The notes: generated from the letters alone by a model not told the origin. A DNA stretch of 64,000 nt from Candidatus Omnitrophota bacterium (GCA_029261055.1 JAJDCA010000015.1:19998-83997); one strand, 5' to 3'; positions 10,542 to 64,000 are shown, counted from the stretch's first letter. Program-made: numbers and translations.

Positions 10542-10576
10542 ATTAGGCGTTGTCCAAGTTATTTTTGGACAATTTC

Positions 10577-11257
10577 TTATTGTGTTACGTTAATTTTCTC
10601 ATTTTCTGCTTCCGGATTAGCCGCCTTAAAATCATGCGCCGTGGGTTGTCCAAAATATTCATCTAACTCAGAAACAATGCCTTGCATACGTCGGGCAATA
10701 CGATCAGCACGACTTTCAAATCCATGGTAGGCCACCATGCACGGAATGGCTACAATCAAACCAAAAACAGTACTTAATAAAGCTTCCCATATGCCTCCAG
10801 CCAAACTTTGCACCTGCACCTGACCGGCCGATAATTCGATTTGATGAAATGCCATCACCAAACCGGCCACCGTACCCAACAATCCTAATAACGGCGCAAT
10901 ATGTGTAATCGTTGCTAAGCCCCTTAAACGACGCTCAACTTTTTCAATAGCCATAGACCCTTCACGACTCAAAACACTATCCCGAAGTTTGTGACGAAGA
11001 TGCTGCAAATAAATACCGGCAATACGCGCAACCGGATTTCGGAATTTATGACAATACCCTACAGCTTCCTCTTGTTTACCTGAACGCAATAAATTAAACA
11101 GTTTCTGACTGAACCCTGCATAATTAATGTGCAGCCGTGAAAAATAATACAGCCTTTCCATGATGATGGCCGTACCGATAACCGAGCACACAAAGAGCGG
11201 CCAACGTGTCAGTCCCGCCTTAGTAAACAAATCCGATAAATTTTGAAACCAATGCAT
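10577..11257 (-). CDS. exbB: MotA/TolQ/ExbB proton-channel protein.
   Basis: 226 aa with three TM segments, a conserved ExbB C-terminal core (LATITHIAPLLGLLGTVAGLVMAF) and exbBD-tonB gene order. Confidence 0.8.
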   Translation of the reverse strand: MHWFQNLSDLFTKAGLTRWPLFVCSVIGTAIIMERLYYFSRLHINYAGFSQKLFNLLRSGKQEEAVGYCHKFRNPVARIAGIYLQHLRHKLRDSVLSREGSMAIEKVERRLRGLATITHIAPLLGLLGTVAGLVMAFHQIELSAGQVQVQSLAGGIWEALLSTVFGLIVAIPCMVAYHGFESRADRIARRMQGIVSELDEYFGQPTAHDFKAANPEAENEKINVTQ

Positions 11258-20967: not shown

Positions 20968-21145
20968 TTAGACCAAAAATATTTTATACTTGAAATGTAG
21001 AGTTACGCTATATTGAATCTCTACGGAATTTGACAATTTGAGAAAAAGGTAAACTGCTCGTAAGAGTAGGACACAAAACTAGAGGGTCCCAATTGAATCA
21101 ATGGGATAGCCAGTTGCCGCATTAATCGCGTAAAAACTTTGTGAA

Positions 21146-21293: not shown

Positions 21294-22859
21294 ATGAAAA
21301 AAATATTTTATTCACTCACATTTATATTAACGCTGTCATTTGCTATAACAGCACAAGCTGAACAGCTTCAGCTTACAACCTACTATCCTGCTCCTTATGG
21401 AGCATACGACAAGCTACTTCTGGTTCCACGCACCCCTTTGAGCGGTAGCTGCCAGACAGGTACGCTTTATATGGAAGACATAGGTAATGGCGATGGAGAA
21501 ATAAGACTTTGTGATAAAGGAATCTGGGCTCCTATTTCAGGCCATTGGAAGCAAGAAAACGATGATATCTTTTTAGTCGATACAGCAACAAACCCTGATT
21601 TATTTGTAGGTATTGGAACCACTAATCCAGGTGCTCGCCTTTCGGTACAAGGCTACGGGAACAGCGCAACAACAGCCAGTCTCAATATGACAAACAGTGA
21701 TGGAAACAGCATACTGTATGCCAGAGATGACAGAAATGTCGGCATTGGAACAACCAACCCTTCAGCGAATTTAGATATTAATAACAATGGCGACCTTACA
21801 GGGGATCCTCTTGGCAGTAATTTATGGTTTCGCCTTTCCGGTGGATCCACCATTGATCACGGACGTATTTGGGCTCAATATTCCAACACTCAAGCTCCTA
21901 TTCTCGTTATGGAAGATGATGACGACCCTTCACGCATTCAATTTCAACAGGTAGGTACAGGCACAGAGTCAACGCCAGAGTTTGTCAGCTGGGTCGGTAT
22001 GGGGAAAAAGAATTCCAGTGACATTGCCCTTATGGGAGGAAAAGTCGGTATCGGTACCACTGACCCTTTAAGTAATCTGCACATCAAAGCGCCTTCGCCA
22101 TCTATAATTTTAGAAAGAGAAGATAATGCCCAAGCAGCTGCTCTAGCATTTTTTCCTAATGGGGCTATTTCCCCTACAAACATGTATTGGGCCATGGGGC
22201 TCAATCTAAATAGTAACCATTTTGTTATCGCTAATGATAGCAACACATCCTTTCCTAACAACATAAGATTTACCATTAAAGATGACGGTAAAGTCGCTAT
22301 GGGAGGAAATCATATTCCCCAAACTGATCTGCATATAAAGGGAAATGGTGTGCTTAGATTAGAAGATACTAGCGTAGCAATAGACTTCATAAATGAGAAT
22401 TCTGGTGACGATAATTTTAGTATTGCTTCTTGGGGCGGAAGTAAAGATATGCTCAGATTTCGATCTAACAAAGATGGAACTTGGGACGATATTGTCCAGT
22501 TTGAAAGTGATGGCGATGTATGGGTCGAAGATGATGTAACGGCCGATGAATACAAAACACATTCTGACGTTCGCCTTAAAAAAAATATCCTACCACTGAC
22601 AGACGCGCTCTCACGTGTGACACAGCTCCGTGGTGTTAACTACCAATGGAGAGATACCGATAAAGATCAAGGAAAAATTCAAATGGGTCTCATCGCTCAG
22701 GAAGTAGAAGAAGTATTTCCTGAAGTCGTTTCAACTGACGAAGACGGATTCAAATCTGTAGCCTATAGTAAACTTGTTGCTGCTTTGATCGAAGCTGTTA
22801 AAGAATTAAAAGCAGAAAATGATGATCTTAAATTGAGGATTGAGAAAATAGAAAAATAA
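21294..22859 (+). CDS. Secreted fibre/adhesin-like protein with IGTTxP-type repeats and a C-terminal S74 intramolecular-chaperone auto-processing domain (phage tail-spike type).
   Basis: Signal peptide MKKIFYSLTFILTLSFAITAQA. Repeated (V/I)GIGTT(N/D)P motifs. The C-terminal ~125 aa (HSDVRLKKNILPL...GLIAQEVEEVFPEVV...LIEAVKELKAENDDLKL) match the conserved core of the peptidase S74 chaperone domain, spanning roughly 22485..22856. Confidence 0.65.
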   Translation: MKKIFYSLTFILTLSFAITAQAEQLQLTTYYPAPYGAYDKLLLVPRTPLSGSCQTGTLYMEDIGNGDGEIRLCDKGIWAPISGHWKQENDDIFLVDTATNPDLFVGIGTTNPGARLSVQGYGNSATTASLNMTNSDGNSILYARDDRNVGIGTTNPSANLDINNNGDLTGDPLGSNLWFRLSGGSTIDHGRIWAQYSNTQAPILVMEDDDDPSRIQFQQVGTGTESTPEFVSWVGMGKKNSSDIALMGGKVGIGTTDPLSNLHIKAPSPSIILEREDNAQAAALAFFPNGAISPTNMYWAMGLNLNSNHFVIANDSNTSFPNNIRFTIKDDGKVAMGGNHIPQTDLHIKGNGVLRLEDTSVAIDFINENSGDDNFSIASWGGSKDMLRFRSNKDGTWDDIVQFESDGDVWVEDDVTADEYKTHSDVRLKKNILPLTDALSRVTQLRGVNYQWRDTDKDQGKIQMGLIAQEVEEVFPEVVSTDEDGFKSVAYSKLVAALIEAVKELKAENDDLKLRIEKIEK

Positions 22860-22886: not shown

Positions 22887-24023
22887 ATGAAAAAAATATG
22901 TTATGTATTTATACTTACCCTGCTAACAGGATTCTCTCAAGCAGCCGTTGCTGAACAGCTTCAACTCACAACGTATTACCCTGCCCCTTATGGAGCCTAC
23001 GACAAACTCATTCTGGTTCCACGTACCCCTTTGAGCGGTAGCTGCCAAACAGGGACACTTTACATGGAAGATGTTGGGAATGGCGATGGGGAAATGCGAC
23101 TCTGTGATAAAGGAATTTGGGCTCCTATGACAGGACAATGGATTCAAAAAAAGGATGATGTCTTTTTAATTGATACCGAAACAAACCCTGATTTATTTGT
23201 AGGTATCGGAACAACTGACCCAAGTGCCCGCCTTTCGGTAGAAGGTTACGGAAATAATGCGACAACAACTAGCCTTAATGTAACAAATGGTGATGGATCA
23301 AGCATACTTTATGCCAGAGATGATGGCAATATTGGTATCGGAACAACATCCCCCGAATCAGCATTACACGTAAAAGGTGGTGGCGATATATACACAGAAG
23401 GATGGAGTTCTGGAATAAATTTCATCAGTAGTCAACCAGCTACTGTCTCTACCTTTGCCATCAAAACTCACGTACCGGATGGAGACCAACTGCGCATCCG
23501 AAGCAATCCAAATAGATTGAACGGGGCATCCTGGCGTGACCTTGTTAGCATTACAGGCAGCGGCAATGTCGGTATCGGAACAACAAACCCTCAGTCATCA
23601 TTACAAATAGGCGGTGGTATCCAGTTTAATGCTAATGCGGATTGGCGGAATGTAGAACCTGATGTCCATTTCGACTCTAGCGCTTCTATTGCTGCCGGTT
23701 ATAGTTTGTATAACATTATCAATGGAAATAACACTGCCCCAAATTCCGTATTTATCATTGGAACAAACAGCCTAACCACGGGCGGGGCTAATTATAGAGA
23801 ACTCATGCGTGTTAAAACAAACGGTAATGTCGGTATCGGAACAAAATATCCGACACAAAAACTACACATCAACAGCGTCATGCGGTTGGAGCCTAGAAAT
23901 AACAAACCTTTTAATTGTAATAAAAATGAAATAGGTTCTATTTACTACAAAAAGAATAAAGAATTGCGTTTATGTACTAGAGACGGTAGCGACTATAAAT
24001 GGAGAAAACTTAAACTTGATTAA
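22887..24023 (+). CDS. Paralogous secreted fibre-like protein. It has the same N-terminal ~150 aa but lacks the S74 domain and has a Cys-motif C-terminal tip.
   Basis: Its N-terminus is about 80% identical to that of the previous gene (AEQLQLTTYYPAPYGAYDKL(L/I)LVPRTPLSGSCQTGTLYMED). The C-terminus, ...NCNKNEIGSIYYKKNKELRLCTRDGSDYKW, repeats the N-terminal C-x-LY-x-RLC-x-G-x-W motif. Confidence 0.55.
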   Translation: MKKICYVFILTLLTGFSQAAVAEQLQLTTYYPAPYGAYDKLILVPRTPLSGSCQTGTLYMEDVGNGDGEMRLCDKGIWAPMTGQWIQKKDDVFLIDTETNPDLFVGIGTTDPSARLSVEGYGNNATTTSLNVTNGDGSSILYARDDGNIGIGTTSPESALHVKGGGDIYTEGWSSGINFISSQPATVSTFAIKTHVPDGDQLRIRSNPNRLNGASWRDLVSITGSGNVGIGTTNPQSSLQIGGGIQFNANADWRNVEPDVHFDSSASIAAGYSLYNIINGNNTAPNSVFIIGTNSLTTGGANYRELMRVKTNGNVGIGTKYPTQKLHINSVMRLEPRNNKPFNCNKNEIGSIYYKKNKELRLCTRDGSDYKWRKLKLD

Positions 24024-24053
24024 GAGTTGTCCAAGTTATTTTTGGACAATCTC

Positions 24054-31345: not shown

Positions 31346-34300
31346 TTATCTCTGCAACACACGCCCTCCTAGAAGACGCCCTTCAGTTATCGGAGATGTT
31401 CGCTGTGAAATATTTCCATTTCTAAAATTTGTTTGCTGAATCCATGCTGATCCTACATCTAATTCATTCCATGTCCTAGTAAAACTTTTTGTATTACCAA
31501 AATATGTTTTAAAATGGCCATTTTGTCTATATGTAGTTTCTCTGTGGTATTCTGCACGATATATTCCAGCGCTCAATGATGTTAATCCGGGGGCTTGAAT
31601 TGTCCCAACATTTTTCCAATTTCCGACTTTAACTGTTTGAATGTGAGAATCTCCAACCCAACTGCCGATGACATTATAAAATTTATGTACAATCAATTCA
31701 TATTTTTTATTCAAATACCCTCCAGGATGAAATGAATCATTTGCAACAAATCCTATGGCGGCTGATACACCACCTAATTTTGCTCCGTCTCCAAAATTAC
31801 CTCCGGTTACTGAGGAAAGGCTTCCACCGATAACGGCCCCTACAATCGAACGACGAGCAAAATTTCCTGAAAATTGAGAAAAAGTATCATTAGTCGTTGT
31901 TTGTAGAAATGGTATCCTTTGCCCGGCTAATTGCGCAACCCCTGCACTCACTCCGCCTATTAAGGCGCTTATTCCTGGGTCGCCACCTAAAATTGTTGTA
32001 TTAATCCCTCCTGATATTGCGCCGCCTATCGTATGCGCAGAAATCTGGGCTGAGCCACTTAATCCTAAATCACCTATGCCTCCAAATATCAACCCACTTA
32101 TAGCTCCCGTTAGAAATCCATCTCCTATATCCCCACCTGTTGCCGCAGCTGTGGCGCCTCCAATGAGAGATCCAAAGAATGCACTTTTAAATAAACCCGC
32201 AAAAAAACTAAAGAGTGCAAAGTTTCCACTGGGATCAACCAAATTAATCGGATTATTATGGACGTAAGTATACCTATTAAATGTTTGTGGATTTTCAGGA
32301 TACGGCACAATTGTATCTGACGTTATAAATCTTCCAATAGATGGATCGTAATAGCGGGCTCCGTAGTAATATAACCCTGCTTCATCGTCGAAGGGTTTCC
32401 CGGTAAAATAGTACAACGCTGTTTCCTGATCATTACCATATTTTTCATGTGTGGCAAAACCACCGTATGGTAGGTACTCGATGAGTTCCTTCTTAGTTCC
32501 TGTATCATCTGTGAGAATATTGGTGCCGCCTAAATGGTCGGAGTGGTAGTATAAAACTTTGTTCCAGGAAACAGAGGCAATTCTTGTATCACCAAGAAAG
32601 ATGTATTGGATTGGACGATTATTGGTTTCCTCGTACATCGTTCCGATATAGATGGTTTCGGTCGTTGTGCTTGTGTCATTTGAAGTCATGTTAAAGAATG
32701 ACATTTTGTTGTGGACAAGATACCCACCGGCAAAGTAGTTGTGATGCTGGTCGACTTCGATGTTATATACCCTTACCGCGGATTGTGTGGTAATTTTTTC
32801 GATTTTTTCAATACTCGCATCCGTTAGATCTAGGCTCAGAAGTTTATCTTCAACAGATAGCTTGCCAATTTCACGCCATTCTCCTTGTGAATAGAATTGG
32901 TGATTGTCCGTCACACGTAAAGTATCATTAATGATTAAATATTCATCAGCAAATTCTCCATTAAAGAAATTCGTCACTGTTGATATAACCTTCTCTCCTG
33001 TACGCTCATTAAAACTCATAACAGCATCACCGATTTGTATCTCTTCAATCGATTTTGTACGCCCATCCGCCATCAAAACAGGTGTTCCTGCTAGAAAACA
33101 CGTGTTATTTCCTGATGGTGTTCCATGCCCGACACCATTTTCAAATGTTACTTTCTTCGTACGTCCTCCATCACCATCATATTTATATTGGGCAATAAGC
33201 ACCCCTGCCTTTTTTACTTCTGTCAGAAGGTTTCCAATATCATAGGTATAATTGATACTGACACCATTTTTAATCTTTGCTGTCATATTACCGTTGGCAT
33301 CATAGGTATAGATCTCGGTGGTGGCACCATCCGTCCGCGATGTCACTGCATGCGGGCCAGCACTGTTTTGACCGTAGGTATATGTAAACCCATCTTTCTG
33401 AATAATATTCCCGATGGTATCATAGGAATACGTCTTGGTGCCGTACGCTTCCCCTACGGCTTGCGTCAAACGACTTAAGGCGTCGTATTGGAAATTTTGT
33501 GTGGCCGTATGGATATTATCAACAATAGACCCCACATTACCCACTGCATCATAAGTATATGAAAAATCTTGTAAAACGCTATTATCTGTACTACTTGTTT
33601 TTACTTGTAGTAACCGTAAATTTAATGGATCGTAGGTATTGCTGGTTATGACACCATTGCCATATTCAATTTGTGTGATCTGCCCATTAACATTATATTT
33701 TATATTTCTTACAAATGAAGTTGATGCAATAGTTCCTGCCACTACATCAATATTTACTACAGCCACATTACTATCTAATTTTCCATCGTTTACCTTAAAA
33801 ATAAAATTATCTTTACCAAGATAATCTACATTTGGTGTATACATTAATTCGGGCGCTGTTCCTGATATTTTGCCATTCGTTGGGAATGTTACAATACTAT
33901 ATGTTAATACATCGTTATCTGCATCATTGCCAGTTAATGTAATAGGTAAAGTACCATTCATATTAATGGTTAAACTGCTTTGATCATTAGCGACTGGAGG
34001 CTCATTGGTTTGAGGTGGACTTACTAATTGAATTATGTCAGAAATTTCACTGGAGCTTAGAGCATCATTGTATACACGCACATCGTCAATACTGCCTTTA
34101 AAATAAATTCCATTACGTCTACCATTAAAAATATCTGCTTCTGAACCATCGCCAATATAGCCATACCGAGTTACGCCGTTCCCAAGTTTCACATTAGTGC
34201 TATAAGCATCACTTTGACTGTCTAGTACACCATCAACATAAATCTTTTTATCATTAACTTGACTAGCATCAAACACCCCGCACACATGATGCCATTGGCC

Positions 34301-37300
34301 GTCATCGACTCGGACGGAACTCGCCATATCATGAATCGCACTTCCCTCACCTCGTGTATCCCAAGAGATTTTACCGATATCTTCTGGTGCATTATGAAAG
34401 TTAATCCCCAATGACCAATACTCACTTCGATCATAATCTACTATTGTTTGTCGTGAAGAAGAACTTGTATTGATCCACGCACAGGTTGTTATTTTATTAA
34501 TTTCCCCAGCAACATTGTAACTTAGATTATTTATCGCTACATAATCGTTCGTGCCATCAAAATCTAATCCATTATTAATTTTTCCAGAAACCCAAGCAGC
34601 ATTCGTCATATTAAACAACGTGCCATTATTTCCATTTCCTGTTGCATCATTAGCATTATTCCCACTTGTTTCATCAAAATTCCAATGACCTATGAATGTA
34701 TTAATTGATGTAGTTGTTAATACATCTAATCTGATTTTTACTACATTACTATCTGCCGTGCCATCATTCACCTTAAATGTAAAACTGTCTGCTCCTACAT
34801 AATTCAAATTTGAACTATATATTAAATTTGGAGCTACTCCTGATAAACTTCCATTCGTTGGTTGAGTTATTACAACATACGTTAATGTATCTCCATCTGC
34901 ATCACCACCTGTTAGTGTTATAGCTAAATCTGTGCCTTGATTGGTTGTCAATCCATTCTGACTATTTGCCGTTGGCGCTGTATTATCTGGTGACACTATT
35001 TTAAAGCTCACCGCTGTTTCTGATTTAAAAGAATCGTTAAAAAGTATTCTCACTTCGTAATCCCCGGGAGGTAATCCAGAGTCAAATGCAATTCTCCCAT
35101 TGATAATTCCTGTGGTGCCGGTTTTTGTTCCATCTGTATAATACCATCCCAAGTTACTAGTATTCGCTGATCCAGCAGAAAACAACCCTATCCAGTCACT
35201 TGAATTCGCTAAAGCATTAAAAAAAGTCACTGTGATGGCCTCATTAGGGGCATATGTAGTTTTATTGATAAAAAGTAATGGCGGGTTTGCTCCAACGATA
35301 AAAGATTCTTTTGATTCTACTTCAAAAGAATTATTAGAAAACATTCTTGTCTCATATACACCATCAACGTTTAATCCATTATTAATTTTCGTAGAAACCT
35401 GATCAGTATTCGTCATATTAAACAACGTACCATTATTCCCATTTCCTGTCGTATCGGCAGCATTGTTCCCACTTGTTTCATCGATTTGTCTCTGAGCAAT
35501 GTAATCCTCTATGCTAGAAGGTGGTATGATATTATCACTAGGCCCAAAAGATGGAATATATCCAGGTGCAGCATTGAAAATATTACGATTTACAATGCGA
35601 AGATTATCCATACTCCCATTTAAATTTTCATAACTACCTCCATGAGGCCCTTCCCCAATGTAAAGCCCTCCCATATAATTAAACGTATTTTCAGTCTGCC
35701 GATACCCCGTCTGTTTACCATCTAAATAAAGTCCATATTTATCCCCCACTTTAACTAAAGCTACATGATGCCATTCATTATCAGTAATTTTGCCACCTTG
35801 TACGGAAATAATACGGTTAAAATTTATTTCTGCAGAAAATTCTAATTTATCGCGGTGCCCCAATTGCCATTCATTTGAACTATTAGATTTATGAACCACA
35901 TAATAATTTGGACTTACAAGGTCTCTATGCTTAACCCAGAGGTCAATGGTCCAGTCTTGAATGGGTGATGCAACAATATCCCAGTCAGGACTATCATCAA
36001 TGTGTAGAAAAGTTTTACTATTAAATGAAAGGCTAGTGCCTGAGAATTTTCCATCTGTAAAATCTAATTCTGGATTCTTATGCGGTATTATTGTGTGCCT
36101 CTTAGATGTATCCGTAAGCGCTGCGTCTATATTTTGCCCATCAAAAAGTAAAAGCAATTTTGTTTCTGGAAACAAAGGAACGGGTGGAGGTTGCGGGGTA
36201 GCATTTCTTTGATTCGAAGTTGGACCATCCACTTGCCCATTATATGCGGAAACCACAAAATAATACGTTGTCCCATTATTTACTTCAGCAACAACAAAAT
36301 TCGTTGTATTCCCAACATCGATTATATTTATCTTATTATTCTCAGAAGTTCCGTATTTAATTTTATAGCCTTCTGCATTATTGACACTGGTCCAACCCAA
36401 GCTTATATTTTTATCCCTACCAACAGAAACATTCAATGTTGGTGCATCTAAAACTATTGTGTTTACTTCATTTGAATTTTGACTTTCTGTTTGAATATCA
36501 TACGCTATAACTACAAAATAGTACGTAAGTCCGCCACTTAACCCAGTAACATTAAAGCTATGGACATTACCTACATCAATTATTTTTATATAACTTCCTT
36601 TGGAGGTTCCGTATTTAATTTTATAGCCTTCTGCATTATCGACACTGGTCCAATCTAAGCTAACGCCCTGATTTTCTACAACTACGGTATTCAAAACTGG
36701 AGGATCTATTATAGGTGGTGCTGGTATGATTTGTTGATTAGAAATTTCTACTACCTGTCCCGCAGCATTATATCCATAATACATATTTTTTGTATTTGGA
36801 TACTGTATTTTTACAATCGAATTTAGTGCATCATAATCTCGTTGGACATTATAAGCCTGATTATTAATTTTTTTTATTGATTGAATTTCTCTCCCCAAAG
36901 GATCATATATAAACTGAACATCACCTTTAGTATAATCGGCTTGTGTTAACTTTCCTTTTGAATGAGACACAGATGCATCATCATAGGTATAATTAACATC
37001 CAGATCTCCTCCATCCGTCTTATTTACAAGGCGATTTAAAGCATCGTAGGTAAATGTAATCTTTTGTCCTTTGGCGTCCATTTGTTCAATAAGGTTGCCG
37101 TTAAGATCATACTCGTACGTCCAAATCCCCATGTCTGGATCATCCATTTTTATTTTACGCCCAAGTTTGTCATATGTAATGTTGGTCGTATTACCCTGTT
37201 GATCTTGTGTTTGGATTAAATTACCAGAGATATCATAGGTATACTGTGTGGTCGCATAGAGAGTAAAAGGTTCCATGGGATAAAAATTTGAATCACGCCC

Positions 37301-56774: not shown

Positions 56775-58814
56775 CTATTTTTTTTGCCTTGGAAATTTAA
56801 AGCAGGGAAGAAGCGTAGAGTAACTATCGGTCCATGGTCTAAATTTTACAATATCTTTTTCAGAAATTGTCTGCCATTTTCCTTCTGTAAGTAATTTTAC
56901 AAATTGATTTTTATCCCACGTAATAGCGATCCAATCGGAACGAAAAATACCGCTAATGTAGTCGATATCTTTTTTGTAGGCGACAAAGGCGCCGGATTCC
57001 ATGGCTGTTTTAAGGAGAGGGTAGCGTAAATCAAGGTAACGATTGGTAACATGAAATACAATAATACCATCAGGTAGAATTTGTTGTCGATAAGTTGATA
57101 GGGCTTCTGTCGTTAATAAATGGACAGGAACAGAATCGCCACTAAAGGCATCCACTACGAGGAGATTGTAATTTTGTTTGTCCATTTTTTCTAAAGAGAG
57201 CCGAGCATCACCGTAGAAGTGTTTGACGGATGCTCTGGATTTATTTAAAAATGTAAAATATTTTTTTGTGATAGCGTGTACATCCGGGTCAAGTTCAAAG
57301 AAGTCCATATGTTGATCTTTTTCCGGGTAGACCGCTAAGGCACCTGTGCCTAATCCAATGATCCCTATTTTTTTTAGACTTTTGTCTCTGATGAGAATTT
57401 CTGCCGTCGGGGACTTGGGGTTGTAATAAACAAGAGGGATAAAACTTCTTTGTTCTTCCAAAAATTGCCCGCCGTGAATCGTTGAACCGTGTAATAAAAA
57501 TCTGACTTTGGGTTGTTCAATAACTTTTGTAATGCCGTAATAATTTCGATGGCTGAATATGTATTTTTCTTTAGAAAATGTAGATTCTAGAATAGGTAGA
57601 AGAAGAATAATCATCAGTATGCTGGCCGTGACGGCGCCGCGTATTTTCCATTTTTTCATGTCTTCAATTTGCCAGGCTAGGCTGATGAGAAAAAATCCAA
57701 GAAAATATTCCAGATAGGAAGAAGAAATAAGCGGTACAAGCCATGTAGCCGTGATGCCGCCTACAAAACTTCCCAGGGAGCTGATGAAATAAAAAAATGT
57801 TAGTTTTTGATGATCAACCGGTCGCGTTGTGTGAAGACGGTTTTGACAAAACATACATAACATAAAGGTTAATAAGAGAAGGATGCAAGCTGAGATGGGC
57901 ACCGGAATAATTCTTTGAAGCATGACGAAATAAAAGACAATACCGAGGGTCATAATCACAGGGATTTGGTTCACGATCCAACGTGGACACCAGGGGTTTT
58001 TTTTGAAGTTTAAGACAAATGTAAGGAGATAAATCGCTAAGGGTAGCATCCAAAATAATGGCATGGGAGCGATTTCTGATGTGATCACATTGGTTACCGA
58101 TAAGAATATAAAAACGCCGGCGGCACTGTAGAGGAGCCATTGCCAAAGGATCGTTTTATTAATCGTTGTATTAAGATTGTGTGATGATGTTTCTTTTGGT
58201 TGGACACGAATCCATTTAAAAGCGGCAAAGTGAAGCGCAATGAAAATAAGGTAACTGATGCGCCAGATTTTTTGCTGGATATGCAAGTCCCAAACCATTT
58301 CAAAAACAAAAGGATATGTGAGTAGTGCCGCGAAAGATCCCAAATTTGAGACAGCAAACAAGGTGTAGGGGTTTTTTCGTTCTGGTAAGTGAGACTCGGC
58401 TAACCACGCTTGCCAGATGATGCTAATCGTAGAGAGTACAAAAAACGCCGGCCCAATCGTTAGCAATAATTTCCAGAAAACTTCAATGACCATGGGTAAA
58501 TTTGATGAAGGGTAACGTAAAGCTAAAGAGTGGCCTGGAAAAAAAAGAAGAGGGAGAAGAATAAAGCCAAGATGAAACTTTCGATACCGTTCTATTCCGA
58601 GCCATTGCACAACACAATGCGCATACAAATACCCTAACAGCAGGGCTGCCTGAAAAAATACAATACACGCCCCCCAAACAAGATAACTCCCACCAAAGTT
58701 AGGAAGAAAAATTTTTCCAATGATCAGTTCAATTTGAAATAAGAGAAAGGCCGATAAGAACGTAATAAATCGAATAAGCCAAATGGGATTCATCATTGAT
58801 AATATTAGGGGCAT
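56775..58814 (-). CDS. Polytopic membrane protein fused to a C-terminal spermidine-synthase-like (aminopropyltransferase/methyltransferase-fold) domain.
   Basis: About 12 N-terminal TM segments. The C-terminus carries IGIIGLGTGALAV...LLVVDAFSGDSVPVHLLTTEA. Confidence 0.55.
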   Translation of the reverse strand: MPLILSMMNPIWLIRFITFLSAFLLFQIELIIGKIFLPNFGGSYLVWGACIVFFQAALLLGYLYAHCVVQWLGIERYRKFHLGFILLPLLFFPGHSLALRYPSSNLPMVIEVFWKLLLTIGPAFFVLSTISIIWQAWLAESHLPERKNPYTLFAVSNLGSFAALLTYPFVFEMVWDLHIQQKIWRISYLIFIALHFAAFKWIRVQPKETSSHNLNTTINKTILWQWLLYSAAGVFIFLSVTNVITSEIAPMPLFWMLPLAIYLLTFVLNFKKNPWCPRWIVNQIPVIMTLGIVFYFVMLQRIIPVPISACILLLLTFMLCMFCQNRLHTTRPVDHQKLTFFYFISSLGSFVGGITATWLVPLISSSYLEYFLGFFLISLAWQIEDMKKWKIRGAVTASILMIILLLPILESTFSKEKYIFSHRNYYGITKVIEQPKVRFLLHGSTIHGGQFLEEQRSFIPLVYYNPKSPTAEILIRDKSLKKIGIIGLGTGALAVYPEKDQHMDFFELDPDVHAITKKYFTFLNKSRASVKHFYGDARLSLEKMDKQNYNLLVVDAFSGDSVPVHLLTTEALSTYRQQILPDGIIVFHVTNRYLDLRYPLLKTAMESGAFVAYKKDIDYISGIFRSDWIAITWDKNQFVKLLTEGKWQTISEKDIVKFRPWTDSYSTLLPCFKFPRQKK

Positions 58815-58866
58815 GATAAATCATGCCCGTACGGGGGTGATTGTAGGGGCATGATTTATCATGCCC
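58809..58866. promoter_or_regulatory. Two copies of a 20-bp self-complementary site (GGGCATGAT-AA-ATCATGCCC) 37 bp apart. The first overlaps the start codon of the spermidine-synthase-like gene.
   Basis: ggggcatgataaatcatgccc at 58808..58828 and ggggcatgatttatcatgccc at 58846..58866. Each is a palindrome. Confidence 0.4.
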
Positions 58867-59198
58867 TTTAAATTATTAAAATACCATAATATCGCAAAAA
58901 AATATGGATGTCACCCATTTTTTCAACCATTTTAAATTAATTCTATCATTATGCAACGCATATAGTTACAATTATTTCAGGATTTTTCTTGTTTTTAAAG
59001 AATTGTAATTGTTTGGCCTCTATGAACTTATGATTTTTTCGATAAATTTGTTTTTTCTTGATAAATATGTTATTTTTTGATTAGGTGCAAAAGAAAGCGG
59101 TTTTTTGCATTGAAAATCTTTAAAACCACGCCAATAATCCCGCCTACCAGCAGGCAGGCACGCCACGGATTGGTGAAATTTCATAAAGTTAAGTGTAG

Positions 59199-59246
59199 AG
59201 ACGTAGCATTGCTACGTCTAATTAAAGACGTAGAATCGCTACGTCT
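59199..59246. promoter_or_regulatory. Twin 21-bp palindromic operator-like sites (AGACGTAGC-N3-GCTACGTCT) 27 bp apart, 20-70 bp upstream of the giant gene start.
   Basis: agacgtagcattgctacgtct at 59199..59219 (perfect 9-3-9). agacgtagaatcgctacgtct at 59226..59246 (8/9). The RBS ggaga lies 7 nt before the ATG at 59267. Confidence 0.45.
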
Positions 59247-59266
59247 CTATAAATTGGAGAAAAAAA

Positions 59267-62200
59267 TGAATATTTTCATCAAAAAACAACGTTTTTGTTT
59301 GGTTTACAGGGTTTTATCCGCATTTATTGCCGTGGCCTTCTTAACTACCACCATTGTTCCGGCTGGATACGCGCAAATGGTGACCATGTCGGCGCCATCC
59401 ATCTTGAATTTACCGACACCCGGCACCATGGTGACCATGAGCGAGGGCTTTCATCCTCCATTGATTCGGGGTTTGAGGATCGACCCGGAGAATCCGCTTA
59501 AATTTAACTTTATTGTAGAAACCGGCGATACCCCTTTGCAAGGTACAGCTTTGCAGCAGGAAGGCGAGAAGCTGATTAAATATTTTCTCGCTGCGCTAAC
59601 GGTACCGGAAGAAGATATGTGGGTCAACTTGAGTCCGTATGAAGCTGACCGTATCATCCCCGAAGGTTTGGGCGATACGGAAATGGGTCGGGATTTGTTG
59701 GCTCAGGATTATATTTTGAAGCAGTTAAGCGCCTCGATGATGTATCCGGAAGATGAATTGGGAGAAGAGTTTTGGGAACGTGTGTATACACGCGCTCAGG
59801 AAGAGTTCGGCACCACGGATTTGCCGATGAATACCTTTAACAAGATCTGGATTGTGCCGTCTAAAGCTGAAGTTTATGAGCACGAAGAATCTGCCAGCGC
59901 GTATGTGGTGGGGAATCATCTGAAAGTCATGCTGGAAGAAGATTATGTGGCATTGCAGGAAAATGCAGGTGTAGAGCATTACGGCTTAGATTCTTTGGGC
60001 GATAATGCCGAACAAGTCGTCAGCGGCGTATCATCAGCCGTTATCCGTGAAGTATTGATCCCTGAAATAGAAAAAGAAGTCAATACAGGCGAACATTTTG
60101 CTAATTTGCGTCAAATATTTCATTCCATGATTCTAGCCGAGTGGTACAAACAAAACCTCCGTCAAAGTCTTTTAGGGCAAGTCTACGTCGATCAAAACAA
60201 AACCAAAGGCGTAGACACGACAGACAAACACGTAAATCAGAAAATCTACGAACAGTACATCGAATCCTTCAAAAAAGGCGTGTACGACTACATTAGAGAA
60301 GACTACGACCCTACCACCCAACAAATCATCCCGCGTAAATATTTCTCGGGTGGGTTTGTAATGAAAGCCATGCTGGCTGAAGTAGCTGAGATAAGCGCGG
60401 AAAATTTAGACGATAGCCAATTGTCTATTCTGGGAGCTAATGAGTTTAAGCGTTACGATTTTGCCGCTATGGTGGAAGAGGCAACAGGGCCTGTTATCGA
60501 TGCGGCCCGGTTGGCAACTCCGATTCAAGCCCAGAACCTGGACAAAGCGCAAAAAGCAGGGGCGTCAGTGGCTAATTTTCTTAGGGAGATTAAGGATGAT
60601 CAAGAGATGTGGACACTTTATGCCAAGCCGGAATTTCTGAAGGACATGAATGAGGTGTTTGTGTTATTGTCTGAGGGGGGCCAAGAAAAGGTAGCTGTGA
60701 ATGCGGCTATTGCGCAGACATTACGGTATATTAAACGTTTAATGGATTCATCGAGCAGAATAAACGAATTTTTGGCGCCCAATGTTATTGTGCCGATTAT
60801 TAAGGCTGTGGCCGAAAAGACCAATCTTAGCGGGGAGAAAATCAATCTGGAAACATATTCCTTAGTCATCAATAATGCATTAGATCAATTTAACCGGATT
60901 CTATTCAAGGATTTTGAAGAAGAGGCTGCTTTGGAATTAGTGAAAAATACGTCCAAAATAAGCAAAGGTGTTGTTACCGCAATTAAAAAAAATTTGACGC
61001 GGGATGAAATTTTTGAGGGAGTTAATTTAGTTTTGAAGCAGCATATTTTTAATGTCACCCAGGGAAAAGAATTTAAAGCAACGACATTATTTGCCGATTT
61101 AAAATTAGCCGGTATGACAGAAGAGGAAATTCTGGAAAATTACAGGTTTATTAAGGATGCTGTTCCACTTCAGTCGCAGGAGGAGGTTTACGCAATAACG
61201 ATGGAGTTTATTGAAAAATTTTTAAATGAAACATTTCCTTCCGGCAATGAGGCCCTGGGTAGTGTAGAGCAGAATCGGAGTAGTAGAAAAGACACATTTT
61301 TATTGATTGTCAAACTTGTGGAAAATGAAGTGTTAGTGGCAACGGATAGTCCGGGATGGGAGATTTTAAGCAAGACCCCTTTAGGGATAACATCGGTGAA
61401 CGGATTGATCAATACATTTTTGAACAGACTCGACCTAACCAAGGATGTCAACAAGAAACAGTATGTAACGACAGATTTTATTAAAGATATACATGCGGTG
61501 ATAAGTGAATCGTCAACCGTCGGCCACGTTATGGCCCCTGCGGACCGTAATTTATTGATTCAAGTGTTTATTCCAACAGTGCTGACGCATCTGGCGGAAT
61601 TTCTCAATAAATCCGACATTCCGGAAAAGTTTTTAACCCGGGAGTTTACGATACCTGTTATCAAGGCGATCGCCCAAAAGAAAGATTCTCAGAACAAGAG
61701 TCTTTTACTCAACACTGAGTCGCCGTTATTGAAGTCTGTATTAGACGAACTGGGGCGGGGAGTCAAAGATTTTAAGTCGGAGGGTGATGTGTCAGCTTTG
61801 AATAATGAAATGGCAGCTATTCACAATATGATTATTTCTGAAATTGAAAATCATGTGCCGTCAAACACGTATTCTTTTGATATTCTCAAAAATTTTCAAG
61901 TAGAAATAGGCCAGATGATCAACTTTAAAACAACAGCTGTGTGGAGGCAAATACAGGCTGGAATGAGCGAAACTGACATTAGTGAGCATTATTGGAACAT
62001 AGTAAAGGTCCTTAGAACATTACCTACCCCGAAAGAGGGAGAAAAAACAACCTTCCCGTTTATTTTAAATTTCCTTGACAAAAGAATAGGACAGGTTGAA
62101 TCACTGGCGAATCCTGATACACAGAAAAAAGTTGCCTTTGAGTTTATTGACTCATTTTTGCAAAATAACGGGCTGCGCACGCAGGATGATTCTGCTGGAT

Positions 62201-64000
62201 GGACAACAATAGAAGACTCTGCTCAGTTAGCCAGTATGAGTATCAGCGACATAGATCAAGCAGAGTTGGTTGAGACGGCTAAGAAGATGAAGCGGAATGG
62301 TGGCGATGCTTATGAGATGGCGAAGTTAGATTTGGCAGAGCTGGTGGGGACGATAGTTTATAATTTTATAGAAAGTATCAAGAATGATAAGTTGATGTTT
62401 TTGGTTTATGGTAATGGAACACTGAGGAAGGGAATGAATGAAGTGGCTAAGGTATTGTCAGACGGAGGAATGGAAAAGGATGAGGTTGGTAAAGTTATTA
62501 CAACGGCATTAATGGATCTTGAAACATTGTTGGAATCTAAGAACAGGATATATGAATTGGCAATGCCTGATTTTATTTTGCCGATTATTAAGGCTGTTGT
62601 TAATAAGAAAAAAGCGAATGGAAATCTATTTGATTTTAATGCTTATCAAGGTGCCGTGGAAGATATATTTGATGATTTGAAGGGTTCTTTGTTTATTTCT
62701 TTGAAAAGGGATATTGTTCAGGAAATCGGGAAAAAATCACTAATAATTCGGGATGATATTATTGAGAAAATTAATGAAAGTGAGTCGATAAAGGGCATTA
62801 CCGATGAGGGTGTTTTTGATTTTGATCGGTATTTATTTGAAGTGACTGAAGGAGAAAAGCTTAAAAAAGATGCAATGTTTGGAGACTTGGTAGAAGCCGG
62901 TATGGTAGAAGAGGAAATTATGGATGGGTTCAGACGTATTTTTGGTGTTTCTTCAAAAAATGTGAATAAGCTTTCATCAGTCCAGAGGGAAATAACAACG
63001 ATTTGGTCTGTTATAGAGTTTATGAAGAAAGTATTTGAGGGTCCTGAAACACGAAATGGATTTGATAGCAATTCTATGTATAAAAAAAATACATTCTCCT
63101 TGATTGTCGAGCTTATCGAAAAAGGCCATCTGGATTATACTAATAGTAAAGGATGGAATATCTTGGAAAATAGTATTAAGGATTTGCCATCAGTGACAAG
63201 TTTGATTAGTGATTTTCTAAAGAAAATTGACAGAAATAATGCGTCTATTGAGGATGAGTATGTAACATCAGATTTTATTTTTAAAATACATCAAGTGATT
63301 CAGAAAATGCAGATTGAGACGCGTGAGGTTGAAAGTAGATTTGTTGTAAACGTTATTCGTGGAGAAAAGCATTCTGCTATTGAGAAAACCTTGAATCAGG
63401 TAGCCGAATTCTTGAATACCCCAGGAATTCCGGGGAATTTTCTGAAAAGGGATTTTATTATGCCTATTGTCAATGCCATCGCCAGTAAAGTAGGTGAAGA
63501 TGGAGATAGCCTGTTAAATAACGAATCTCCGAATGAGATATTGCCAAAAGTGTTTGAGAGCCTCTTGGATCAATTTGGAAAACTAAAAAATGAGGATAAG
63601 GTAAACGTATTAAATGCGAACGTGAAATTTATTCGTAGTGATATTTTGAAAGACATTGATAACCTTACTTTAGGGAATTTAGAAGAAAGTTTTTCTTGGA
63701 TAGCATTGAATACTCTTAAAGCAGAGATTAATGCTTTGGTGACATTTGAAAAGAGCCTGTTATGGGATCTATTAAAAGATAATATGAAAGAAAATGAAAT
63801 TAGGGAAACTTCTTGGGAGATACTAAGAACTCTTAGAACATTACCTGGAAAGAGAAATAAAACAACGTTCCAATCTATTTCAGAATTTCTTTGGGATGAG
63901 ATTGGAGCTGCCGAGGGTTTTGGCGGACAAGCCGTAAAGACAGCCTTTTTAAGTATTAAACAAGAGCTGGAAGCCGGAGGTCTGAGTACGACGAAGACGG
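59267..64000 (+). CDS. Giant repeat-containing protein, N-terminal >1,570 codons. It continues beyond the window end.
   Basis: ATG at 59267 with an RBS. The N-terminus (MNIFIKKQRFCLVYRVLSAFIAVAFLTTTIVPAGYAQ) is signal-peptide/TM-like. Internal divergent repeats include NVIVPIIKAVAEK / DFILPIIKAVVNKKKA / DFIMPIVNAIASKVGED / FTIPVIKAIAQKKDS, DLKLAGMTEEEILENYRFI / DLVEAGMVEEEIMDGFRRI, and LRTLPTPKEGEKTTFPFILNFLDKRIGQ / LRTLPGKRNKTTFQSISEFLWDEIG. The frame is open to position 64000. Confidence 0.7.

Follow-up and report, generated by a model that had tools for sequence, protein, structure and literature searches.

Twin palindromes upstream of a giant-protein gene in Candidatus Omnitrophota as probable GTAG-tagged REP dimers

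Known repeat and giant-protein systems and the Omnitrophota locus

The GTAG-tagged REP (repetitive extragenic palindromic) superfamily consists of short hairpins with a GTAG tag that are extragenic and multi-copy, and that are found singly or in closely spaced pairs (Di Nocera, De Gregorio and Rocco 2013, PMC3733652). Members have a stem of 5-13 bp and a loop of 2-20 nt and are recorded in Cyanobacteria and the PVC (Planctomycetes-Verrucomicrobia-Chlamydiae) superphylum; their dimers are head-to-head (HH) when the tags lie outside and tail-to-tail (TT) when the tags lie inside, and the partners fold apart or as one large stem-loop (PMC3733652). Annotated open reading frame (ORF) starts that run through REPs are a known artefact (PMC3733652). 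Along with REPINs (Bertels and Rainey 2011, PMC3116915), GTAG-REPs are among the closest known systems to the element considered here, a pair of palindromes at 59199-59246 immediately upstream of a giant gene in a 64,000-nt stretch of DNA from Candidatus Omnitrophota bacterium (GCA_029261055.1, JAJDCA010000015.1:19998-83997), referred to as the window. A sequence-only reading of this DNA had taken the palindromes for twin operators of a dedicated dimeric regulator that tightly controls the gene; this is not supported, and the palindrome is instead a dispersed REP-like repeat that is extragenic and biased towards gene 3' ends. The twin palindromes and a second pair nearby are considered to be GTAG-tagged REP dimers (HH and TT, respectively) and not private operators, with a probability of about 0.65 for the whole explanation, including that of the gene and its protein family.

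For the protein encoded downstream, the closest described counterparts are the giant proteins of Omnitrophota, namely the 'Archaeovorins' (West-Roberts et al. 2023, bioRxiv 10.1101/2023.11.21.568195) and the entries of a long-protein catalogue (10.64898/2026.06.07.730766); in these papers, glycolytic domains in Omnitrophota giants are predicted to be extracellular and are left unexplained. The gene product of the window belongs to an unnamed, very large and architecturally odd family in which two constant ends bracket an exchangeable middle, and this family is the most valuable lead of the analysis.

The palindrome pairs and their distribution

Unit 1 of the first pair (59199-59219) reads AGACGTAGC-ATT-GCTACGTCT and unit 2 (59226-59246) reads AGACGTAGA-ATC-GCTACGTCT, with 27 bp from centre to centre. 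The pair was originally described as two nearly identical 21-bp palindromes at this distance, which is correct; the further claim that both conform to one arm consensus fails for unit 2, which has 8-bp arms around a 5-nt centre. Unit 1 has a stem of 9-10 bp with a loop of 1-3 nt and unit 2 a stem of 8 bp with a loop of 5 nt, and both qualify as stem-loops of the GTAG-REP type. Chance copies of the twin palindrome are not expected (none in 100 shuffles) and the window holds no further copy of it; a census of perfect palindromes in the window gives 28, against about 10 in shuffles. The features of the intergenic region are as follows, L080 being the contig of the closest relative, whose homologous protein is P0002.

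56775-58814, minus strand: fused major facilitator superfamily (MFS)/spermidine synthase-like gene, the divergent neighbour; its first listed ATG lies inside a REP
58809-58866, no strand assigned: second REP dimer, tail-to-tail; GGGCATGATAAATCATGCCC, an 18-nt spacer and the exact reverse complement GGGCATGATTTATCATGCCC at 58847
59048-59076, plus strand: candidate promoter TTGTTT-17-(TGT)TATTTT
59110-59138, plus strand: candidate promoter TTGAAA-17-AATAAT
59162-59174, plus strand: leader motif GCCACGGATTGGT, also in L080 and, as GCCACGG, in 14 of 79 family leaders
59195-59250, plus strand: head-to-head GTAG-tagged REP dimer; GTAG (59195-59198), unit 1, AATTAA, unit 2, CTAT (59247-59250)
59256-59259, plus strand: Shine-Dalgarno GGAG, read from the sequence and kept in L080, 6 nt before the ATG

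A terminal GTAG is present in both dimers of the region. The first dimer is HH with a 6-bp spacer, and its outer tags are GTAG and CTAT, the latter one mismatch away from CTAC. Compared with unit 1, unit 2 has 2 mismatches as a direct copy and 3 as an inverted copy; the reading of unit 2 as an inverted copy was dropped, as 2 versus 3 mismatches leave the orientation undecidable. The second dimer is unambiguously inverted: it is a perfect 20-bp inverted repeat of the TT type, with its tags inside (GTAC at 58829-58832 and GTAG at 58843-58846) and 10 nt between them. Both dimers lie within one 451-bp intergenic region, 330 bp apart, and no other palindrome of the window carries a GTAG tag. The second dimer (GGGCATGAT..) has no copy among the family and metagenome loci examined or in plasmids; it precedes the ATGATG (58796-58791) of the minus-strand gene by 12 nt, and the true start of that gene is probably at 58796 or 58793.

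As a single strand, the first dimer folds into one hairpin of about 25 bp at -35.3 kcal/mol versus -23.8 kcal/mol for two separate hairpins, a gain of 11.5 kcal/mol; the pair probability of the long hairpin is about 1.0. The hairpin ends at 59250, 5 nt before GGAG, so that the ribosome-binding site stays free. Searches of Rfam at the palindrome site give sub-threshold noise only.

The Omnitrophota DNA scanned amounts to about 596 kb, that is, the window and 80 loci, and in it the palindrome family occurs at the window site and at the matching spot of L080 only. The L080 leader shares GCCACGGATTGGT, GTAG with unit 1 (19/21 identical), a diverged unit 2 and GGAG; its dimer lies in the same place and forms a 16-bp stem with two G-U pairs (-26.1 versus -18.2 kcal/mol). 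Between the window and L080 the hairpin region is better conserved than the surrounding leader, with fold z-scores of -5.8 (window) and -4.1 (L080). The twin palindromes were also considered as a family-wide promoter feature and rejected as such, being absent from 78 of 79 homologue loci, with L080 as the exception. It had been proposed that a palindrome both unique and unconserved in relatives would speak against its being an operator; it is not unique, and among relatives it is kept in L080 and lacking from the other family loci examined. The paralogue P0005 has an over-extended annotation as well ("RQPRHGLVEF-INIGGN-M"), and comparison of its leader suggests that GCCACGG..TTT is kept but that the approximately 90 nt holding the dimer are missing, which is a weak hint that the dimer was inserted.

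The proposed search for other copies of the palindrome, which was meant to define a regulon, yields no regulon; it yields a dispersed repeat in at least 120 unrelated contigs and in plasmids of Nostocales. In public metagenome contigs AGACGTAGCNTTGYTACGTCT is found in at least 120 contigs of 30-60% G+C, with several copies per assembly; assembly JAESGE01 contributes 12 different contigs among the 80 matches listed. The identity between the window and the metagenome repeat extends over 25 nt (GTAGAGACGTAGCATTGCTACGTCT), and the extended consensus is (T)GTAG-AGACGTAGC-ATT-GCTACGTCT-CTAC(A). GTAG is present in the consensus of all three GC classes; in the high-GC class just one side retains it, and TTT is a frequent centre. 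The cyanobacterial HIP1 octamer is about 100 times above expectation in contigs of 36-46% GC, whereas 29 high-GC and 15 low-GC contigs are HIP1-poor, and this difference indicates that several phyla carry the repeat. In a plasmid BLAST search the repeat appears in unannotated intergenic DNA of Nostoc, Trichormus variabilis and Brasilonema. By-sequence matches in the literature are limited to the native genomic flank of the right end of the Scytonema hofmannii CRISPR-associated transposon (ShCAST) and to primers, and are incidental.

In their genomic setting the copies behave as extragenic elements: 119 of 127 sites (94%) are extragenic, the median distance is 57 nt to gene 3' ends versus 177 nt to 5' ends, and 31 sites lie between convergent genes and 9 between divergent genes. 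Outward-tagged dimers with a spacer of 0-2 nt recur in L158, L164 and L198; a partner within 45 nt is found at only 8 of 127 sites. One low-GC copy pair flanks a Fur-like gene adjoining relA/spoT. Two further possibilities were rejected: carriage of the repeat by phages, as there is 1 match in 2.9 million viral contigs, and a REP-associated tyrosine transposase (RAYT) between the paired sites of L120 and L172, where the flanked ORFs encode a Fur-like regulator and a pentapeptide-repeat protein.

The repeat also varies in structure. Among the metagenome contigs (L081-L200, e.g. L091, L158, L164 and L198), those of high GC often join AGACGTAGC..GCTACGTCT directly to a sister unit, GAGACGTTGCA(n)TGCAACGTCTC, yielding GTAG-unit-unit'-TAC heterodimers; other variants, e.g. 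..TTCCGCCGGAA.. and ..TAAAATTTTA.., keep just the outer GTAGAGACG...CGTCTCTAC stem, as if the top of the stem were exchangeable.

The locus thus resembles the described GTAG-REPs in its stem of 9-13 bp, 3-nt loop and terminal GTAG, in being extragenic and multi-copy in other genomes, and in the ORF starts that run through REPs, seen here in the database protein P0001 of the giant gene and in ORF 56775-58814. The assignment is made by these shared features and not by the consensus sequences of the numbered GTAG families. The locus differs in that the sequence is common to very different GC classes. On a more tentative reading, one GTAG-REP sequence is found nearly unchanged in cyanobacteria, high-GC soil bacteria, a Bacteroidota-like contig and Omnitrophota; such sharing would point to a recent transfer across phyla or else to a conserved host factor by which the repeat is recognised.

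Promoter, hairpin and alternative explanations

Promoters of the family typically follow the profile TTG-17-TATACT(T) (36 sites), which the candidate at 59048-59076 resembles; the candidate TTGAAA-17-AATAAT is the best match to the sigma-70-like consensus (10/12), and both candidates lie upstream of the dimer and of GCCACGG. With these better candidates upstream of the palindromes, the dimer would be placed in the 5' untranslated region (5' UTR) of a leader that is probably transcribed from an upstream promoter. If transcribed, it would form one RNA hairpin of about 25 bp that ends 5 nt before the ribosome-binding site, and a duplex of this size would suffice for cleavage by RNase III or for stabilising the 5' end; the hairpin would then act, if at all, on mRNA processing or stability rather than through repressor binding, and it may also be neutral.

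The leader motif (C)GCCACGG(A/T) is an observation in its own right: 14 of 79 family genes have it 25-250 nt before the start codon, always on the plus strand, an 8-fold enrichment; the loci include L003, L004, L010, L023, L024, L028, L031, L045, L047, L058, L066 and L080. It lies downstream of the TTG-17-TATACT promoters and may be a family-specific leader signal.

The model originally proposed, in which two operators are bound cooperatively by a dimeric repressor or activator over the promoter and place the giant gene under tight control, is considered improbable. It draws on the near-perfect dyad symmetry of both sites and the close identity of unit 1 in L080; as for the proposed placement of the palindromes over the -35/-10 region, a sigma-70-like match TTGCTA-16-TAGAAT (9/12) lies within them, and the stronger candidates are upstream. 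The mostly 3'-proximal extragenic occurrence of the palindrome in many unrelated organisms argues against an operator, as do the lack of further copies in the window and, the orthologous L080 site apart, in 530 kb from loci of other Omnitrophota, and the 78 other family promoters that have no palindrome. A centre-to-centre distance of 27 bp corresponds to about 2.6 helical turns and would put the two sites on roughly opposite faces of the DNA, a poor arrangement for cooperative binding. In L080, unit 2 has diverged yet still pairs with unit 1; Pfam and NCBIfam searches of the neighbouring ORFs reveal no regulator gene adjoining the locus; the GTAG tags that define REPs are present, and 330 bp from the pair there is another REP dimer of different sequence. 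If a chance palindrome, unrelated to mobile repeats, had been duplicated locally in tandem over 27 bp, this would account for the period of 27 with 2.0 copies and 82% matches reported by Tandem Repeats Finder and for the 2 positions at which unit 2, read as a direct copy, differs from unit 1; this origin is extremely unlikely, since a 25-nt identity to a repeat in at least 120 other contigs cannot be due to chance, and the outer GTAG/CTAT tags suit the REP dimer plan (PMC3733652).

A rather more plausible but still doubtful alternative is that the REP dimer has been co-opted, the long 5'-UTR hairpin being under selection for RNase III processing, stabilisation or protein binding and thereby governing how a very long mRNA is translated or how long it persists, with the second dimer acting likewise for the divergent gene. 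The L080 dimer is at an equal distance from the Shine-Dalgarno sequence and its substitutions leave the 16-bp stem with G-U pairs; the higher conservation of the hairpin region, the fold z-scores and the position of both intergenic dimers 12-19 nt from a start codon all accord with selection. These points are countered by the single relative available, which precludes covariation statistics, by the persistence of pairing in palindromic repeats through descent alone and by the 78 other family genes that do without the dimer; the leader would also have to be transcribed.

Several observations also weigh against identification as GTAG-tagged REP dimers together with the accompanying account of the gene. 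High-copy behaviour is not seen: the 64 kb contain only four REP units, which share a single intergenic region upstream of divergent start codons, a setting in which the locus differs from described GTAG-REPs, and the 530 kb from other Omnitrophota contain no other copy except that of L080. No RAYT (Y1_Tnp) is found among the 32 window ORFs of at least 150 amino acids (aa) and the giant ORF, the only transposase among the window ORFs searched being the rve_3 integrase at 40337-41617; as most genomes with a RAYT have just one copy, 64 kb are too short a stretch to decide. REPs do not typically lie between divergent genes at 12-19 nt from each start codon, and with the retention in L080 this placement means that the hairpins could have been co-opted for regulation. 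Conservation is seen in one relative, L080, and the palindromes themselves contain the weaker sigma-70-like match. As to the protein, its export and the functions of its two ends are predicted from sequence, and the model of the N-terminal domain is of moderate confidence (pLDDT 63). The GTAG-REP identification carries a caution for other genomes: perfect twin palindromes before a gene can be mobile REP dimers and not operators, and they mislead gene callers, as in P0001, where reading through them sets the start 63 codons too early.

The giant protein, its family and other features of the window

The ORF starts at ATG 59266 on the plus strand, and translation of the window gives 1,578 codons without a stop up to base 64000. 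The sequence-only reading had placed its start at 59267; the openness to the window end holds, but the frame read from 59267 is packed with stops and was rejected, the coordinate being one base off. P0001 is 100% identical across all 1,578 aa of the window ORF and then runs on to a stop, so the product of more than 1,570 aa truncated by the window is recovered at full length, and interruption of the ORF soon after the window, which would have spoken against a giant gene, is not what P0001 displays. As annotated P0001 has 2,519 aa, and the palindromes are translated in its 63 surplus upstream codons as "...RDVALLRLIKDVESLRLY..."; since all homologues use an MNIFIKKQ-type start, the true product has 2,456 aa. 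The parts of the protein encoded within the window are as follows.

59266-59373, plus strand: Sec-type signal peptide (aa 1-36, ...AGYA|Q), with invariant A36/Q37 and an AlphaFold2 (AF2) helix at 3-30; predicted cleavage site
59374-60354, plus strand: conserved N-terminal domain (N-domain), aa 37-363, ending PRKYFSGG, from family identity and an AF2 model
60631-64000, plus strand: repeat units R1-R4, from motif copies and self-comparison z-scores
60631-61500, plus strand: R1
61501-62415, plus strand: R2
62416-63300, plus strand: R3
63301 onward, plus strand: R4, cut by the window

The signal or transmembrane (TM)-like N-terminus noticed earlier is confirmed in the form of a basic n-region, a hydrophobic helix and the invariant A36-Q37, from which export of the protein is predicted. 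Pfam and NCBIfam searches of the protein are without a match, in agreement with the remark that no domain is recognisable. All three types of divergent repeat motif that had been reported are found: P(I/V)(I/V)(K/N/E)A.. occurs five times, AGMxE(E/T)(E/D)I three times and (K/H)TTF three times. Self-alignment places them in five divergent units of approximately 290-305 aa each, with similarity z-scores of 54 for R1 and R3, 48 for R2 and R4, 20 for R1 and R2 and 8-11 for R5; the order is (R1 R2)(R3 R4)...R5, an (A-B)(A'-B') super-repeat of about 600 aa. A profile of the repeat unit has no Pfam match and no PDB relative, the best being designed helical repeats at E of only about 0.01, a likeness at the level of composition; the repeats are probably helical. 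Besides the repeats there is a unique region of about 400 aa, of which P0002 has two copies in a different module order.

The first 363 aa share 55-81% identity with thousands of proteins; alignment with 25 relatives gives 58-81% identity and 83 invariant columns. A profile of the N-domain (about 330 aa) matches 8,311 clusters at E <= 1e-3 and 6,598 at E <= 1e-30, the clusters being defined at 50% identity, and the window protein is the top match of the family profile. Among the 150 best matches listed the domain is always N-terminal, in proteins of 420-5,312 aa. A genome scan confirms at least 560 family loci, and among the best 79 a single genome has as many as five; the record titles that name a taxon are all Omnitrophota or, for some metagenome-assembled genomes, "Planctomycetales", and the N-domain family as seen so far is restricted to Omnitrophota. 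The N-domain has no relative in Pfam, NCBIfam or the PDB (the best Foldseek E is 0.1, and a PDB sequence search is also empty); its AF2 model is an alpha/beta structure with a pTM of 0.59.

At the other end, a motif of about 65 aa (C-motif), GGI(N/D)LN..L.LQIKRDG.GVPLP...Q....M.I.GF.P.I.N..PV.LP.LLG, is followed by an acidic tail and is found in the last 64-135 aa of 103 of the 120 best relatives; in P0001 it is located 93 aa from the end, beyond the window. A model of the C-motif alone (pTM 0.28) is mostly coil, one stretch around RDGRGVPLP being confident; a docking or sorting peptide would account for this better than a globular domain would. Enzyme domains between the two ends in relatives include phosphoglycerate kinase, UDP-glucose pyrophosphorylase, glucose-6-P isomerase, phosphoglucomutase, pyruvate phosphate dikinase (PPDK), hexokinase, enolase, GAPDH and aldolase; receiver, GGDEF, HEAT, metallophosphatase, radical SAM and other domains also occur mid-protein.

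The family plan would be a Sec signal peptide with a domain of about 330 aa, a freely swapped middle, and the C-motif with its acidic tail, the two ends serving as putative handles for export, anchoring or docking. With a middle composed of five repeats of about 300 aa and the 400-aa unique region, the window protein looks like a scaffold-type member and not an enzyme-carrying one, and it likely acts in the cell envelope or on the surface. It is tentatively hypothesized that the family represents an undescribed phylum-wide Omnitrophota system, in which more than 8,000 proteins cross the cytoplasmic membrane and are anchored or joined via the two common ends; if true, these ultra-small predatory or epibiotic bacteria would carry an extracytoplasmic array of complete glycolytic and sugar-nucleotide enzymes, signalling domains and repeat scaffolds. 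As the constant ends bracket enzymes that are normally cytoplasmic, the plan provides a testable handle on the "extracellular" glycolytic domains of Omnitrophota giants.

The family and the Omnitrophota giants share the phylum, an N-terminal signal peptide or TM segment, and several domains found in relatives of the window protein (phosphoglucomutase, glucose-6-P isomerase, aldolase, PPDK, receiver, radical SAM, HEAT and glycosyltransferase). The window protein differs in its length, 2,456 aa versus 30,000 or more in the giants described there, and in having none of the SecA-like, C39 and dockerin domains by which the giant classes are defined; term searches of the same papers found no mention of the bracket formed by N-domain and C-motif. 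The family also resembles the cargo of sorting-signal systems, namely the C-terminal domain (CTD) proteins of the type IX secretion system (T9SS), PEP-CTERM and LPXTG proteins, in its signal peptide, variable cargo and short conserved C-terminal element ending hydrophobic, a resemblance by analogy that does not amount to membership. T9SS, PEP-CTERM and LPXTG signals give no Pfam or NCBIfam match on P0001 or P0002; the C-motif is predicted to be mostly coil and not a beta-sandwich as in the T9SS CTD, the family tail is acidic and not basic, and a large conserved N-domain is present as well.

Family genes occur in tandem, as at 1-696 and 856-5577 of L080, where the gene upstream of P0002 ends in the C-motif too (...VTRDPMDVKT), and on the contig common to L015 and L030, which are 5.7 kb apart; several contigs have 5-6 members, such as contig 321631 with P0005, P0007, P0012, P0032, P0055 and P0088. 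Within the window, a 268-aa ORF at 41876-42682 (plus strand) contains the C-motif (42431-42679, 42% identical to that of P0001) without the N-domain and is adjoined by the rve_3 integrase/transposase gene at 40337-41617 (minus strand); an insertion sequence has probably disrupted a family member here and left this ORF behind.

The other giant gene of the window, at 31346-40057 (minus strand, 2,903 aa), is of the RHS/YD-repeat toxin type and unrelated to the N-domain/C-motif family; it contains TcdB_toxin_midN, FG-GAP, Laminin_G_3, Big_9 and pretoxin-HINT domains. A cyclic di-GMP (c-di-GMP)-I riboswitch aptamer (Rfam RF01051, 66.5 bits, E = 8e-11) is located at 21038-21121 on the plus strand, upstream of ORF 21294-22859, in which an endosialidase chaperone domain (Peptidase_S74) is recognised. 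An identical 23-nt palindrome, TTGTCCAAGTTATTTTTGGACAA, is found at 10550-10572 and 24027-24049, 4-5 nt past the stops of two unrelated genes, an ExbB-like gene (10577-11257, minus strand) and ORF 22887-24023 (plus strand); it may represent a terminator common to both or a further small repeat.

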